Shown: piece by piece, positions 39,463-41,857 of the stretch
Numbering within the stretch: position 1 is the first letter of the stretch
Layout of the letters: each line of letters begins with the position of its first letter
DNA from: Candidatus Latescibacterota bacterium
Lineage (GTDB): Bacteria > Latescibacterota > UBA2968 > UBA8231
Assembly: GCA_965261395.1 (NCBI GenBank)
Contig: OZ253462.1
Location: forward strand, 1,216,001 to 1,280,000
Reading direction: 5' to 3'
Length of the DNA stretch: 64,000 nucleotides
Notes under the pieces: generated by a model
Seen by the model: only the letters and a program-made list of their open reading frames with translations
Database searches by the model: none
What the model was told of the DNA's origin: nothing
Program-made: the position numbers and the translations under genes

Positions 39463-40455
39463 ATGGGTAAAATTCGCGTGGGATTTATCGGCTGTGGTGG
39501 AAATGCCAGCGGGCACCTAGGGCGGATGCTCGGCATCCCCGAGGCCCAAGTGGTGGCTTTGTGCGATGTGGATCAGGCCAGTCTGCAGCGGGCCAAGGAG
39601 CGCAACCCGCAGGCCGCGGAGTTGCCGGAGTTTACCCACTACCAAGAGATGCTGGAGCAAGTCGAACTGGACGCGGTAGAAATTTCCACGCCACACACAT
39701 TGCACTTCGAGCAGATTATGGCCGCGCTGGACAAAGGGCTGCACGTGCTGACCGAAAAGCCGATGGTCTGTACTGTCGATCACGCGCACCAAGTTATCGC
39801 CAAAGCAGAGGCGACCGGCAAGGTCCTGATGATCTCCTATCAACGGCACTTGGGGGCGCAGTACCGCTATGTGCGCAATCAGATCGCGGCCGGGGAATTG
39901 GGGGATATCCAGTTTATAGCGGCGCTCCAAGACCAGAAGTGGTATCAGGGGACGATAGGGCTGTGGCGGCAGCAAATGGCGCTGTCGGGCGGCGGGCAGC
40001 TCAACGACTCGGGAAGCCACCTACTGGACATTGTGTTGTGGATGGCCGGGCTGGAGGTGGCCGAGGTGCAGGCCTACATGGAACACTTCGACTCCGAGGT
40101 GGATATCAACTCGGCGCTGTCGCTGCGCTTTGGCAACGGCGCGCTAGGGACTATTGCGGTGGTGGGCAACTCGCCGACTGGCGGGATGTGGGAGGACATC
40201 ACCATCTGGGGGACCAAGGCGGTGGTCTATATCCGTCAAGGACAGGTCTTCTACAAGACGCAGCACAGCGGTGAGGTGTACCAGGTCAATAACTTGCCCG
40301 GCTCGGCGACGCCCGACCAGAATTTCATCGACGCGATTCTCGGCCGCGACCAAGTGCAGGTGCCCCCCGAATGCGGTTTGCGGGTCATTGAGCTGACCGA
40401 AGCGGCATGGGCCTCGGCCGCCAGTGGGCAGCCGGTCAAAGTCGAGCGGAAATAG
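39463..40455 (+). CDS. Gfo/Idh/MocA family oxidoreductase
   Basis: GFIGCGG, HVLTEKPM, GGGQLNDSGSHLLD. Confidence 0.92.
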   Translation: MGKIRVGFIGCGGNASGHLGRMLGIPEAQVVALCDVDQASLQRAKERNPQAAELPEFTHYQEMLEQVELDAVEISTPHTLHFEQIMAALDKGLHVLTEKPMVCTVDHAHQVIAKAEATGKVLMISYQRHLGAQYRYVRNQIAAGELGDIQFIAALQDQKWYQGTIGLWRQQMALSGGGQLNDSGSHLLDIVLWMAGLEVAEVQAYMEHFDSEVDINSALSLRFGNGALGTIAVVGNSPTGGMWEDITIWGTKAVVYIRQGQVFYKTQHSGEVYQVNNLPGSATPDQNFIDAILGRDQVQVPPECGLRVIELTEAAWASAASGQPVKVERK

Positions 40456-40459
40456 ACGA

Positions 40460-40488
40460 TTGACCCGGTTCACTAGCTCTTGTATATT
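40460..40488 (+). promoter_or_regulatory. Sigma70-type promoter driving an intergenic transcript
   Basis: TTGACC (40460-65), a 17-bp spacer and TATATT (40483-88), followed by an AT-rich start region. Confidence 0.75.
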
Positions 40489-40494
40489 AAAAAT

Positions 40495-40799
40495 TAAGTC
40501 GAGTTCGGGGGCCACAAACCCTTGTTGCCGCTACGCTGAGGCTCGAGGCTACGCGAGCGAGCCAACCCGGCTTTGTCACTGGCCGCAACGACGCGCAGAG
40601 TTGGAGTATGGATTATGAGGCGCGCACTAGCGAAAGGAGGTGGTTCATTGAGTAGTAATTGTACCGCAGCAGGGAGGTTGATCACTTGATCAACTCCAGG
40701 TGATCGACTACCTGGTCAGAAGCACAGTCGCTTCGGCGACATAGCTTCTGAGAGTACAGCCGGGCGCACCCCACCTTAGTGGGTGCGCCCGGTTTTTTT
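40495..40799 (+). ncRNA. Putative structured non-coding RNA (or small-peptide mRNA) of unrecognised family
   Basis: Own promoter and terminator, no long sense ORF within the transcript, several hairpins including GTCGC-TTCG-GCGAC, and three motifs complementary to the 16S 3' end. Confidence 0.6.
40759..40799 (+). terminator. Rho-independent terminator
   Basis: GCCGGGCGCACCCCAC-CTTA-GTGGGTGCGCCCGG followed by T7. Confidence 0.9.
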
Positions 40800-40864
40800 G
40801 TCCGCGTTGCCCTAGTTGGTTCCCACGCGGTATTTTTGCCATATTGTCCGCGAGGAGGCCGTCT

Positions 40865-41857
40865 ATGAAACGCATCGCCAAGCCCGCAGGGGCCTATAAC
40901 ATCGTGGTAGAAGAGGTCGAGGTTCCGGCCATTGCCCCGACCGAGATTTTGATTCGCGCCGAATGTTCGCTAATCAGCCGAGGCTCGGAGATATGGCGGC
41001 GCTACGTGCGCGAAGAGGCGATCGATCACCGCGCCATGGGCTACTCGCTGGTGGGCCGAGTCGCAGAGGTCGGCGCAGAGGTTGAAGAGTTCAAAACCGG
41101 CGATCTGGTCGCGGCCCTCGCGCCGCACGCCGAATACGTAGCGGTCGAAGTAGTAGCCGGCCAGCACAGGCCTGCGGCCGTGCGCCTGCCAGCGGGCCTA
41201 GCGCCCGAGGCGGGCACCTTCTGGCCGCTGGGAGCCAGCTCGGTCCTGTGGATGTGGGAGACCGAGGCCGGCCCAGATGATGTCATGGTCATCCAAGGGC
41301 AGGGCTTGGTAGGTAGCGGTTGTATGCAGGCGGCCAAGGCACAAGGCGCGGGGCGCGTCATCGGGATCGATGCCTTGCCCCTGCGCTGCGAACTGGCGCG
41401 TGAGTTAGGGGCCGACGTGGTGGTAGACGCTAGCGCCGGTGACTCTGTCGCACAGGTTTTGGAACTGACGGACGGAGAGGGTGCAGACGTGGTGGTCGAA
41501 GCTGTGGGCGGGCGGGCCGGAGCGCAGGCTTTTGCCGAGGCGCAGGACATGCTCAAGCGCGGCGGCCTCTTGCAGGTGCTGGGGCTATACGAAAACGAAC
41601 CCCTGCCGCTCTACTCAGAAAAAATCATGGGCAAGCGCCTCATAGGCAGCTACCTCGACGCCGACCGGCGGCCCGAAGGATCAGCACGTGCCCTAGAGCT
41701 ATTGACGACGGGCCAGATCCAGTTCGCCAAGATGATCACCCACCGCTTCCCCTACACCGAAGCGGCAGCGGCCTTCGACCTGCTCTACAATCGGTTGGGC
41801 GAGACGATGGCGGTATTGCTGATGTGGGAAACTGACTTAGGAGACGACGATGAGTAG
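40865..41857 (+). CDS. Zinc-binding (MDR) alcohol dehydrogenase family protein
   Basis: SLISRGSE, GYSLVG, GQGLVG, GADVVVEAVG, MITHRFP; GAGGAGG RBS before ATG 40865. Confidence 0.88.
   Translation: MKRIAKPAGAYNIVVEEVEVPAIAPTEILIRAECSLISRGSEIWRRYVREEAIDHRAMGYSLVGRVAEVGAEVEEFKTGDLVAALAPHAEYVAVEVVAGQHRPAAVRLPAGLAPEAGTFWPLGASSVLWMWETEAGPDDVMVIQGQGLVGSGCMQAAKAQGAGRVIGIDALPLRCELARELGADVVVDASAGDSVAQVLELTDGEGADVVVEAVGGRAGAQAFAEAQDMLKRGGLLQVLGLYENEPLPLYSEKIMGKRLIGSYLDADRRPEGSARALELLTTGQIQFAKMITHRFPYTEAAAAFDLLYNRLGETMAVLLMWETDLGDDDE

Follow-up and report, generated by a model that had tools for sequence, protein, structure and literature searches.

The analyzed window, a 64,000-nucleotide stretch of contig OZ253462.1 from a Candidatus Latescibacterota bacterium (assembly GCA_965261395.1), encodes a stand-alone RNA of approximately 305 nt on the forward strand (40495–40799), which has its own promoter and terminator and is a class-wide, single-copy gene in uncultured Latescibacterota. 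The RNA is present in RNA libraries and harbors an invariant, extended Shine–Dalgarno (SD) sequence complementary to the 16S rRNA tail, a mini-ORF with conserved start, stop, and frame, and a second SD at a near-constant distance from the stop codon within covarying helices. These features favor, with moderate confidence, a ribosome-engaging small mRNA in which selection maintains ribosome binding and its position rather than the peptide. The preliminary description had considered a ribosome-binding or ribosome-sequestering RNA, a translation-coupled switch, and a type I toxin-like small-peptide mRNA; that interpretation is partly supported.

Transcription unit and distribution

A sigma-70-type promoter is located at 40460–40488 (+) and comprises TTGACC (40460–65), a 17-nt spacer, and TATATT (40483–88). 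It matches the consensus at 10 of 12 positions (one site found versus 0.3 expected) and is the single promoter-like site within 40300–41000. A regular-expression search recovers a TTGnn-N15-19-TATATT/TACATT-like promoter at the equivalent relative position in 19 of the 24 family representatives. The boundaries of the RNA are predicted, with the −10 box setting the 5′ end and a T-run (40793–99) setting the 3′ end. This T-run belongs to an intrinsic terminator at 40759–40799 (+), the stem of which occupies 40759–92. Six of the 12 pairs of this covarying stem are changed on both sides across homologs, with 97.2% paired; the terminator is missing from the output of a simple terminator scanner. The whole RNA is predicted to fold with a minimum free energy of −129.4 (z = −4.27).

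Metatranscriptome contigs are confined to the RNA, extending over 40529–40786 in X8 and X9 with the flanks uncovered; the tables of these two are identical, perhaps one data set filed twice, and are counted once. The X4 contigs span 40614–40766 at a depth of 1136, which drops to 22 past the terminator. The loose ends of the X4 contigs (40643 and 40766), like the uncovered parts in X8 and X9, are of uncertain meaning in assembled contigs. In total, the RNA is present in 14 RNA runs from four studies, as assembled contigs that give no ends, strand, or level and in libraries where DNA can occur. It appears to be abundantly transcribed.

The genome of origin (6.55 Mb, single contig) carries one copy, at 1.2566 Mb, and BLAST identifies homologs in 22 of the 24 other genomes of the genus. 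The RNA is found in 70 of the 76 genomes of the family, covering 17 of its 18 genera, and in 98 of the 132 genomes of the class, in one copy per genome. A single weak match was obtained among 36 genomes from other classes of Latescibacterota. Neighboring genes vary from genus to genus, and those downstream are often convergent.

Extended Shine–Dalgarno sequence, mini-ORF, and covarying helices

The three motifs and two mini-ORFs of the preliminary description are found where it placed them. Motif 1, AAAGGAGGTGGTTC (40633–46), is lengthened to 15 complementary nucleotides by G40632 and lies within the extended SD GAAAGGAGGTGGTTCA (40632–40647, +), the complement of the 16S tail GGATCACCTCCTTTC. 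The 16S tail reads GGAUCACCUCCUUUCU in, for example, Bacillus subtilis, and the 16S rRNA of the organism itself ends in ...GGCTGGATCACCTCCTTTCTAAGG. With this native end, motif 1 (40632–46) forms 15 consecutive pairs, slightly more than the approximately 14 proposed earlier, including two G-U pairs and an 11-nt Watson–Crick run, and the complementarity stops 1 nt short of the TTG at 40648.

The complementarity of motif 1 exceeds chance. Across both strands of the 6.55-Mb genome, only seven sites, one of them the rDNA itself, can form at least 15 consecutive pairs with the 16S tail. The predicted duplex of −26.4 kcal/mol ranks fourth among 14,263 GGAGG-containing sites (median −12.5), the first being the rDNA antisense, and compares with −17.9 predicted for motif 2, −13.2 for motif 3, and −14.8 for the ordinary ribosome-binding site of the next gene. 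Motif 1 is strong but not unique, in that two other genomic sites offer 14 consecutive Watson–Crick pairs. The sequence GAAAGGAGGTGGT is identical in 23/23 sequences of the same genus and in 23 of the 24 family representatives, whereas L058 has GGAAGGAGGTGGT, which differs by a single base at its 5′ end. As read by eye from the alignment, the majority of the genus has GGTGGTCCA, which forms 16 pairs with one G-U fewer.

In thermodynamic folds of most homologs, the 3′ half of the SD (GGTGGT) is predicted to be base-paired inside the RNA, which may leave only the 5′ AAAGG accessible. RNAalifold pairs GGTGGT with GCCGCY (40527–32 in the window), single-sequence folds give differing partners, and covariation is uninformative for this pairing because the SD side never varies.

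Mini-ORF1, MSSNCTAAGRLIT (40648–40689, +), has 13 codons and extends from TTG 40648 to TGA 40687–89. Its frame, start, and stop are retained without exception in the 24 family representatives, and 84 of the 86 loci compared also retain them, corresponding to 43 distinct sequences. Among the latter, the start is TTG (27), ATG (9), or GTG (7), the stop is TGA (40) or TAG (3), and the length ranges from 9 to 13 codons; a TAA stop is found in L094 and L165. Other families of the class use an ATG start, and the weak start codon is thus not universal. All indels are multiples of three (3 or 6 nt). Neither of the additional frames proposed earlier is retained. Mini-ORF2 (MINSR; 40686–40703, +; TTG 40686, TGA 40701–03) is genus-specific, as most other genera have CTG at this position without a matching stop, and a 24-residue extension of mini-ORF1 from ATG 40615–17 is disrupted in L024 by a 1-nt deletion that leads to a stop after four codons.

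Motif 2, GGGAGGTTGATC (40672–83, +), contains the internal second SD, GGGAGG (40672–40677, +), which ends 9 nt upstream of the stop. A GGAGG precedes the stop codon at this distance (33) or at 10 nt (7) in 40 of the 43 distinct sequences. Across homologs, it occupies three different reading frames, being read as G-R, R-R, or G-G, which indicates that the nucleotides and not the residues are kept. Motif 3, AGGTGATC (40698–40705, +), belongs to the 3′ side of helix b and covaries with the segment it pairs with inside the RNA (GATCAC/GTGATC to GACCAC/GTGGTC), which argues for selection on the helix and not on 16S pairing. The idea of three tandem 16S-complementary motifs therefore stands for motif 1, a conserved long complement, but not for motif 2, which keeps GGAGG(T) only, or for motif 3.

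Helix b (40670–40714, +) is formed by 40670–73 with 40711–14 and 40676–88 with 40697–709, with a loop at 40689–96. It buries motif 2, the last codons of mini-ORF1, the stop codon, and motif 3, consistent with the earlier suggestion that motifs 2 and 3 lie in hairpins that a ribosome on the first ORF would open; the helix is located within mini-ORF1 and immediately downstream of it. Four of its 17–18 pairs are changed on both sides, and 94–96% are paired, versus 31–47% and 34–41% in slid-partner controls from two alignments. A long-range helix connects TGTAC (40660–40664, +), within codons 5–6 of mini-ORF1, to GTACA (40754–40758, +), directly 5′ of the terminator; four of its five pairs are changed on both sides, and 89% are paired in the MAFFT alignment. 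Most of mini-ORF1 is thus base-paired in covarying helices. Hairpin c (40717–40750, +) is variable in sequence and length.

Upstream of the SD lies a structured 5′ domain (40495–40631, +), which is genus-variable, extends 72–183 nt to the SD, and has a partly resolved fold. It includes hairpin 1 (40592–40624, +), in which CGCGC (40592–96) pairs with GCGCG (40620–24) and the loop holds the non-conserved ATG 40615. All five pairs of this hairpin are changed on both sides, with 95.9% of cells paired in an alignment fitted to the model. Loop sequences are not kept between genera. A hammerhead-like CTGATGAG occurs in some 5′ domains, but it is inconsistent across homologs and has no Rfam match. A 6S RNA was also considered and rejected: there is no RF00013 match in the region or genome with a model that detects 5 of 14 controls. 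The present fold lacks the rod shape of 6S RNA, in which the two ends pair and enclose a central bubble; its helices backed by covariation are local, and a terminator forms the 3′ end.

The peptide encoded by mini-ORF1 is hydrophilic, 9–13 residues long, and rich in Ser, Thr, Gly, and Arg. It is alike within the family, roughly M-S-S-x-x-T/P-x-G-R-x-I/T-T, whereas comparison across the four families of the class shows little in common (MSSNCTAGRLIT, MSEMTSGGGCR, MIATTRRWVV, and MKEITTRRATA). Homologs thus keep the extended motif 1 and, at the level of the class, do not keep the peptide, the distinction on which the preliminary description had proposed that homologs be compared. Within the genus, approximately six amino-acid-changing versus three silent substitution types are counted by eye, and silent changes are thus not overrepresented. 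An ordinary gene for a functional peptide of 12–13 residues, the expression of which is tuned by the long SD and the RNA structure, would explain the conserved start, stop, and frame as well as the similarity within the family, and the RreB and RreR peptides are likewise conserved inside their own clades (PMC5711450). This alternative is unlikely in light of the divergence among the four families, the differing frames in which GGAGG is kept, the substitution pattern, and the location of the ORF mostly inside covarying helices. In addition, none of the flanking genes examined is a conserved neighbor able to modify or export the peptide.

Proposed ribosome engagement and alternative readings

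For the favored ribosome-engaging mRNA, we infer a sequence of events that starts with 30S binding and proceeds through actual translation. The 15–16-nt extended SD (40632–47), the single-stranded element conserved most strongly in the RNA, would capture a 30S subunit by docking on its whole single-stranded 16S 3′ tail and would place it on the weak TTG/GTG start 6–7 nt downstream. Translation of the 9–13-codon mini-ORF would then unzip the long-range helix at codons 5–6 and helix b at the last four codons and the stop. With the stop codon in the A site, the internal GGAGG would be positioned 6–7 nt from the P-site codon, a geometry equivalent to that of an initiation complex, such that the terminating ribosome, judging from the spacing alone, could be held again through its anti-SD. 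By analogy with rreB, ribosome engagement probably sets the lifetime of the RNA, which may also have a physiological role further downstream.

A trans-acting regulatory RNA or sponge, with an incidental ORF and SD-like motifs that bind a CsrA-like protein or C-rich, anti-SD-like RNA stretches, is distinctly improbable. It would be in keeping with the strong promoter, the structured body, and several GGA/GGAGG motifs spaced approximately 37 nt apart, and ACAGGGAGG, which we take to resemble the CsrA SELEX consensus, is counted in its favor. However, a search of the single-contig genome yields no CsrA gene (PF02599, with a model that detects 3 of 14 controls), and there are two full GGAGG motifs only, both outside hairpin loops; on these grounds, a sponge of the CsrB/RsmY type was rejected. 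Loop sequences that differ between genera also speak against a sponge, and the start/stop/frame signature is unexpected for a non-translated RNA.

The order of ORF, hairpins, and terminator resembles an attenuator, and the downstream gene in the genome of origin, a zinc-dehydrogenase gene with its ATG at 40865, is on the same strand and begins 65 nt past the terminator. A cis-acting leader of this gene, whether a leader-peptide attenuator or a riboswitch, is nonetheless very improbable and was rejected. No conserved, co-oriented downstream gene is found: in ten loci, the downstream genes differ (ADH_zinc_N, URO-D, DAP epimerase, BFN nuclease, epimerase, sigma-54 activator, Reg_prop, and three without a family), and in L058, L060, L062, and L064 the gene lies on the opposite strand. 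The terminator is self-contained, with no conserved anti-terminator partner by inspection, and the contig depth in X4 is 1136 ahead of it but 22 beyond it.

The slightest probability is assigned to a small-RNA or small-peptide toxin, which was rejected. It could be a type I toxin mRNA, as suggested in the preliminary description, or resemble CreT, in which tandem AGG codons trap a rare tRNA. The mini-ORF with its strong SD, the stem-loop, and AGG AGG read in some homologs are in line with a toxin. However, the peptide is 9–13 residues long and hydrophilic instead of a hydrophobic one of approximately 20–60 residues, and the lone promoter-like site in 40300–41000 is on the + strand, with none for an antisense RNA. 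GGAGG varies in frame and is often read as GGG AGG or GGA GGT, such that tandem rare codons are not conserved. CreTA is located beside a CRISPR-Cas locus and includes a CreA guide, whereas the nearest Cas1 genes (0.31, 2.77, and 2.97 Mb versus 1.2566 Mb for the RNA) are more than 900 kb away. A near-consensus, constitutive-looking promoter in a class-wide, single-copy gene is also a misfit for an unguarded toxin.

Comparison with known systems

In translational-coupling junctions and at the prfB frameshift site, an internal SD is found upstream of a stop codon. The present RNA shares with both a GGAGG inside the ORF at a fixed short distance from the stop, and the stop overlaps a TTG (CTTGA) in the genus to which the window belongs. 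It differs in having no conserved downstream cistron, as mini-ORF2 is not kept, no slippery codon, and an SD-to-P-site spacing of 6–7 nt, not 3 nt.

A pattern scan of genome contigs reveals look-alike RNAs in Solirubrobacterales/Acidimicrobiia, a Chloroflexi MAG, and an Oligoflexales MAG. These have GAAAGGAGGTGGT(C/G)(C), a TTG, GTG, or ATG start, a 10–15-codon ORF, and an internal GGAGG 8–11 nt before the stop, although the search pattern required both the SD and GGAGG, and the sharing of these two features is partly due to the search. The Actinomycetota and Chloroflexi look-alikes end in a GC-rich hairpin followed by T residues. None of the look-alikes matches Rfam at gathering score, and their sequences outside the SD cannot be aligned to the RNA of the window; in the Actinomycetota look-alike, the SD is close to the 5′ end and the C-terminus of the peptide reads ...GTLEV(R/A)(G/E)R. 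At least 120 stretches matched the pattern, many of which are coding sequence and were discarded by eye. Among them, matches spanning 84 nt in Verrucomicrobiota and Geobacter lie inside an ORF that translates as GELGKEVVIE..., and several Streptomyces matches are also coding.

A broader proposal is that the RNAs of Latescibacterota, Actinomycetota, Chloroflexota, and Alphaproteobacteria constitute a widespread, unrecognized ribosome-directed class. Rather than serving as peptide genes, they would dock on the full length of the 16S 3′ tail and support a minimal 30S cycle, in which a start is followed by approximately 12 codons and then by a stop whose accompanying second SD recaptures the anti-SD, as a test drive or quality check for new 30S subunits, a gauge of free 30S, or a cap for the 16S tail of idle subunits. 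This proposal is quite unlikely, a little more so than the peptide gene. RNase R begins on the single-stranded 16S 3′ end, according to one report (PMC10901742). The role of a cap against RNase R is weakened, as no RNB-domain gene was found in the genome and an HPF-type factor is present, although other exonucleases are possible.

The closest known relatives are the small mRNAs with an extended SD, rreB, rreR, and CC2171, of which the present RNA is a variant outside Proteobacteria. An Rfam search of the region returns nothing at gathering score. The best sub-threshold match is RF01867 (CC2171) with 20.6 bits (E = 0.028) against a gathering score of 75, and membership in this family was rejected. 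The CC2171 consensus, from Caulobacter and other Alphaproteobacteria, opens with GAAAGGAGGUGAUCCA followed by GUG and ends in a terminator, and the alphaproteobacterial matches retrieved carry GAAAGGAGGTGATCC with GTG or ATG and an ORF that starts with M-S. In contrast, the alphaproteobacterial ORFs have 22–32 codons, and a GGAGG lies within approximately 11 nt of the stop in one of 15 (L211).

In the report of Hahn et al. (RNA Biol 2017; PMC5711450), rreB contains 17 nt complementary to the 16S tail and a 14-residue sORF that begins with GTG; it co-sediments with 30S subunits and is stabilized by removal of the start codon, and its translation is weak. Its overexpression has no growth phenotype, and its function is unknown, such that the analogy supplies a binding mode and not a role. 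Like rreB and rreR, the present RNA is a stand-alone small mRNA with its own promoter and terminator, its SD is extended on both sides into a long 16S-tail complement with the 3′ part predicted to be paired and the 5′ bases free, its ORF is very short with a mostly non-ATG start, and its genomic context is not conserved over larger distances (PMC5711450). A ribosome-directed RNA is the best reading, and it matches rreB, the one analog that has been studied.

Several differences separate the two. The present RNA belongs to Latescibacterota, whereas rreB and rreR belong to Alphaproteobacteria. It is approximately 305 nt long with a structured 5′ domain of 72–183 nt before the SD, compared with 165 nt for rreB, and its ORF has 9–13 codons, compared with 14 in rreB and 18 in rreR. 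[quoted passage not shown] The conserved GGAGG 9–10 nt before the stop in a covarying helix is not described for rreB in the available portion of the report (PMC5711450). Furthermore, 30S binding has been demonstrated for rreB only.

Small mRNAs with an extended SD (rreB, rreR, CC2171) have been reported from Alphaproteobacteria only, according to the same available text (PMC5711450), and a search of the available literature on rreB and Shine–Dalgarno returned no report beyond it. The present analysis extends the design of an extended SD and a mini-ORF to a single-copy, class-wide, expressed gene in a distant uncultured phylum, with look-alikes in at least two further phyla. It also places new constraints on functional models, namely, preservation of the start, stop, and frame alongside a drifting peptide, a second SD fixed 9–10 nt before the stop, and a mini-ORF mostly locked in covarying helices, which make the role of such RNAs at the ribosome more testable.

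Transcription unit and distribution

The motifs lie in a 410-nt gap separating a GFO/IDH/MocA oxidoreductase gene (39463-40455) from a zinc-dehydrogenase gene (ATG at 40865). The gap harbors a promoter-like site, TTGACC-17-TATATT (40460-88), and a GC-rich terminator hairpin of 12-13 bp (40759-92) followed by seven T residues (40793-99); the two elements together delimit an RNA of about 305 nt, whose predicted fold has an energy of -129.4 kcal/mol (z = -4.27); no Rfam family matches the region at the gathering score. The sole Rfam match at the gathering score in the window is a full-length tmRNA (RF00023, 16050-16408 on the reverse strand, 194.2 bits). A 6S RNA identity was rejected, there being no Rfam match to it anywhere in the genome and the fold being unlike that of 6S RNA.

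Parts of the stretch are present in 14 RNA runs from four studies as assembled contigs, which are not to be read as giving transcript ends, strand, or level. In X8 and X9, which are possibly one data set deposited twice, the contigs are limited to 40529-40786, with a word depth of ~320 in a run of 33 million letters and the flanks without cover. In X4, the depth is 1136 for the contig at 40614-40766 versus 22 for a contig starting past the terminator, while in X1 a single 2195-nt contig spans the whole stretch. Two X4 contigs exit the stretch, one at 40766 and the other at 40643, midway through the long Shine-Dalgarno (SD) motif; the latter continues into tRNA-like sequence, which the contigs cannot distinguish from an assembly or ligation chimera.

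The RNA is encoded once in its own genome. Of the 24 other genomes of the genus, 22 contain it by BLAST, as do none of 16 genomes from other families. A covariance model built on the RNA core (R1) finds one copy each in 69 of the family's 76 genomes; a second model, built from the family-wide matches (R2), finds 70 of 76 and covers 17 of 18 genera. Across the class, R2 matches 98 of 132 genomes, distributed over families f1 (69/75), f3 (3/3), f4 (8/22), and f2 (17/31, with scores of only about 26 bits). The 36 genomes sampled from other classes of the phylum give one weak match. Among the genus's more distant species, identity is 87-90% over the core versus 73-81% over the flanking genes. At four f2 loci (L081-L084), the RNA has an additional hairpin inserted 3′ of the stop codon, and the upstream gene encodes a product ending in YWGDYDN...-type repeats, beta-propeller-like by eye.

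The long Shine-Dalgarno motif and the mini-ORF

The preliminary description proposed three SD-like motifs, the first pairing with the 16S 3′ end far beyond a normal ribosome-binding site (RBS). Motif 1, AAAGGAGGTGGTTC, is present at 40633-46 and preceded by G40632. The single 16S gene of the genome ends in GGCTGGATCACCTCCTTTCTAAGG, such that motif 1 makes 15 consecutive pairs with the tail, two of them G-U, bearing out the long pairing. The predicted duplex energy is -26.4 kcal/mol, ranking 4th among 14,263 GGAGG sites (median -12.5), as compared with -14.8 kcal/mol at the RBS of the gene that follows. On both strands of the 6.55-Mb genome, seven sites reach at least 15 pairs, one being the rDNA itself. 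Since two other genomic sites form 14 consecutive Watson-Crick pairs, motif 1 is extreme but not unique.

Among homologues, GAAAGGAGGTGGT is unchanged in 23/23 genus sequences and intact in 23/24 family representatives, the exception being L058 with GGAAGGAGGTGGT. AAAGGAGGTGGT is present in f2, f3, and most f4 members inspected, and genus g5 carries AAAGGAGGCGA. In the single-sequence folds predicted for most homologues, AAAGG is free and the 3′ half of the SD is paired, as likewise proposed for the alphaproteobacterial small mRNA rreB (PMC5711450).

The mini-ORF downstream of motif 1 (ORF1) runs from TTG at 40648 to TGA at 40687-89, as originally described. It begins 6-7 nt downstream of the motif in 24/24 representatives (11 nt in one lineage), and a simple rule detects it at 84 of the 86 loci from L002 to L087; of the two misses, one is truncated by a contig end, and the other has a variant SD outside the regular expression, with the ORF seen on inspection. 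The 43 distinct sequences start with TTG (27), ATG (9), or GTG (7) and stop with TGA (40) or TAG (3), TAA occurring in two further records. The ORF comprises 9-13 codons, and its length differences are always multiples of three (-AGT, +GCA, +6, -6). Judged from the sequences, the conserved start, stop, and frame are the signature of a recognized reading frame. The window ORF1 has an additional GCA codon (Ala) at 40666-68, which is absent from the 22 other sequences of the genus alignment and from the X1 and X4 RNA contigs.

Two further frames of the preliminary description are present but not maintained among homologues. The ATG at 40615, from which a longer ORF1 was proposed, exists, and the extension is broken in locus L024. 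ORF2 (TTG at 40686 to TGA at 40701-03) is absent from most other genera, where CTG occurs without a matching stop.

Internal motifs and conserved helices

Motif 2, GGGAGGTTGATC, is found at 40672-83, of which only GGAGG(T) is general among homologues. In 40 of the 43 distinct sequences, 9 nt (33) or 10 nt (7) separate this internal GGAGG (SD2) from the stop; the remaining three carry GGAAGG, GTAGGGG, or AAGGGGG. Because the codon reading varies (GGG-AGG, AGG-AGG, or GGA-GGT) while the stop distance is fixed, motif 2 is a nucleotide motif rather than a codon pair. Motif 3, AGGTGATC, also exists (40698-705) and forms the 3′ strand of a hairpin at 40670-714 (helix b). A GATCAC-to-GACCAC change in the 5′ strand of this hairpin is accompanied by GTGATC-to-GTGGTC in motif 3, which preserves the internal helix and weakens the would-be 16S pair. 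The 5′ strand itself, GATCAC(T/C)T or, in other genera, GACCACCT, resembles ATCACCT of the 16S tail.

Hairpin 1 (40592-624) and helix b reach 96% pairing in a model-fitted alignment, nine of their pairs having changed on both sides; 0/500 shuffles match this, and slid partners are 31-47% paired. In a plain MAFFT alignment that spans the SD through the terminator in 15 sequences, both sides change in 4/5 pairs of a long-range helix (40660-64 with 40754-58) and in 6/12 pairs of the terminator helix; these two helices and helix b are 94.2% paired versus 34-41% when slid. Most of ORF1 is consequently base-paired, codons 5-6 contributing to the long-range helix and helix b containing the last four codons and the stop. 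No supported helix includes the SD or the first four codons.

The RNA is probably a ribosome-engaging small mRNA. By analogy with rreB, the long SD would catch the 30S subunit via the full 16S tail, and translation of the mini-ORF would unzip the long-range helix and helix b. At the stop, SD2 would be 6-7 nt from the P-site codon, a spacing suggesting that it can re-pair with the anti-SD. The original observation is real and its interpretation partly right. A gene acting through its peptide is an unlikely alternative, the peptide differing widely between families (MSSNCTAGRLIT, MSEMTSGGGCR, MIATTRRWVV, MKEITTRRATA). A trans-acting RNA or sponge is less likely still, no CsrA gene having been found in the genome. 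A cis leader of the downstream gene is very improbable and was rejected because neighbor genes change between loci: of the ten loci examined, four have the oxidoreductase upstream (the window, L055, L058, and L059) and others MetRS, HEAT-repeat, ParA-like, or amine-oxidase genes, and the downstream genes are all different and often convergent. Least probable is a toxin, the Cas1 genes being >900 kb away. Separately, the genome has an HPF/RaiA-type gene at 266266-266529, and an RNB-domain exoribonuclease (RNase R/II family) was not found in its single contig (controls match in 11/14).

Look-alikes and known small mRNAs

Among the pattern-scan matches listed is a second, unrelated-looking RNA family in Solirubrobacterales and Acidimicrobiia (L091, L092, L095, L122, L124, L128, L129, L136, L137, L149, L154, L161, L167, and L173). 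Its members combine GAGAAAGGAGGTGGTCC with a TTG/GTG/ATG start and an ORF of 13-14 codons that ends in ...LEV(R/A)(G/E)R; GGAGG lies 11 nt upstream of the stop, and the total length to the terminator is ~290 nt. None of the members checked (L091, L095, L149, and L161) matches Rfam at the gathering score. A BLAST search started from a single copy recovers the SD-ORF part in 14 of the 101 genomes sampled from its class, query genome included. Single examples of a long SD with a 10-15-codon ORF include L152/L209 (Chloroflexi MAG), L104 (Armatimonadota MAG), L193, and L110 (Oligoflexales MAG). In L152 and L110, the internal GGAGG precedes the stop by 8 or 11 nt; in L104 and L193, it abuts the stop (distance 0). 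The SD and GGAGG common to all these look-alikes derive partly from the search, as the scan pattern required both. Downstream, L110 carries CTCACCTCCTTTCTTTGA, which replicates the 16S tail.

In Bradyrhizobiaceae, rreB is a 165-nt mRNA comprising a GTG start, a 14-aa ORF, and 17 nt perfectly complementary to the 16S 3′ end; it co-sediments with 30S, is weakly translated, and is stabilized by start codon replacement, while rreR of Rhodobacterales has an ORF of 18 aa (Hahn et al., PMC5711450). In the available text of that paper, rre analogues are reported only from four alphaproteobacterial orders, with no role assigned. A literature search on rreB and Shine-Dalgarno returned this paper alone, and further searches turned up no later work on such RNAs. 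The Caulobacter analogue, Rfam CC2171, has a consensus beginning GAAAGGAGGUGAUCCA-GUG and matches in 16 of 101 alphaproteobacterial genomes sampled, four of them above the cut-off; in contrast to the window RNA, the ORFs of its matches span 22-32 codons, and only 1/15 has GGAGG near the stop.

The window RNA appears to resemble the rre RNAs in its front half and is not a member by sequence; its pairing also falls short of the at least 16 perfect pairs, extending to the start codon, that characterize them. It further differs in its additional long 5′ domain, second SD, helices, and shorter ORF. It is a new variant of a known though obscure type of RNA, found in a phylum new for this type and carrying new conserved features.
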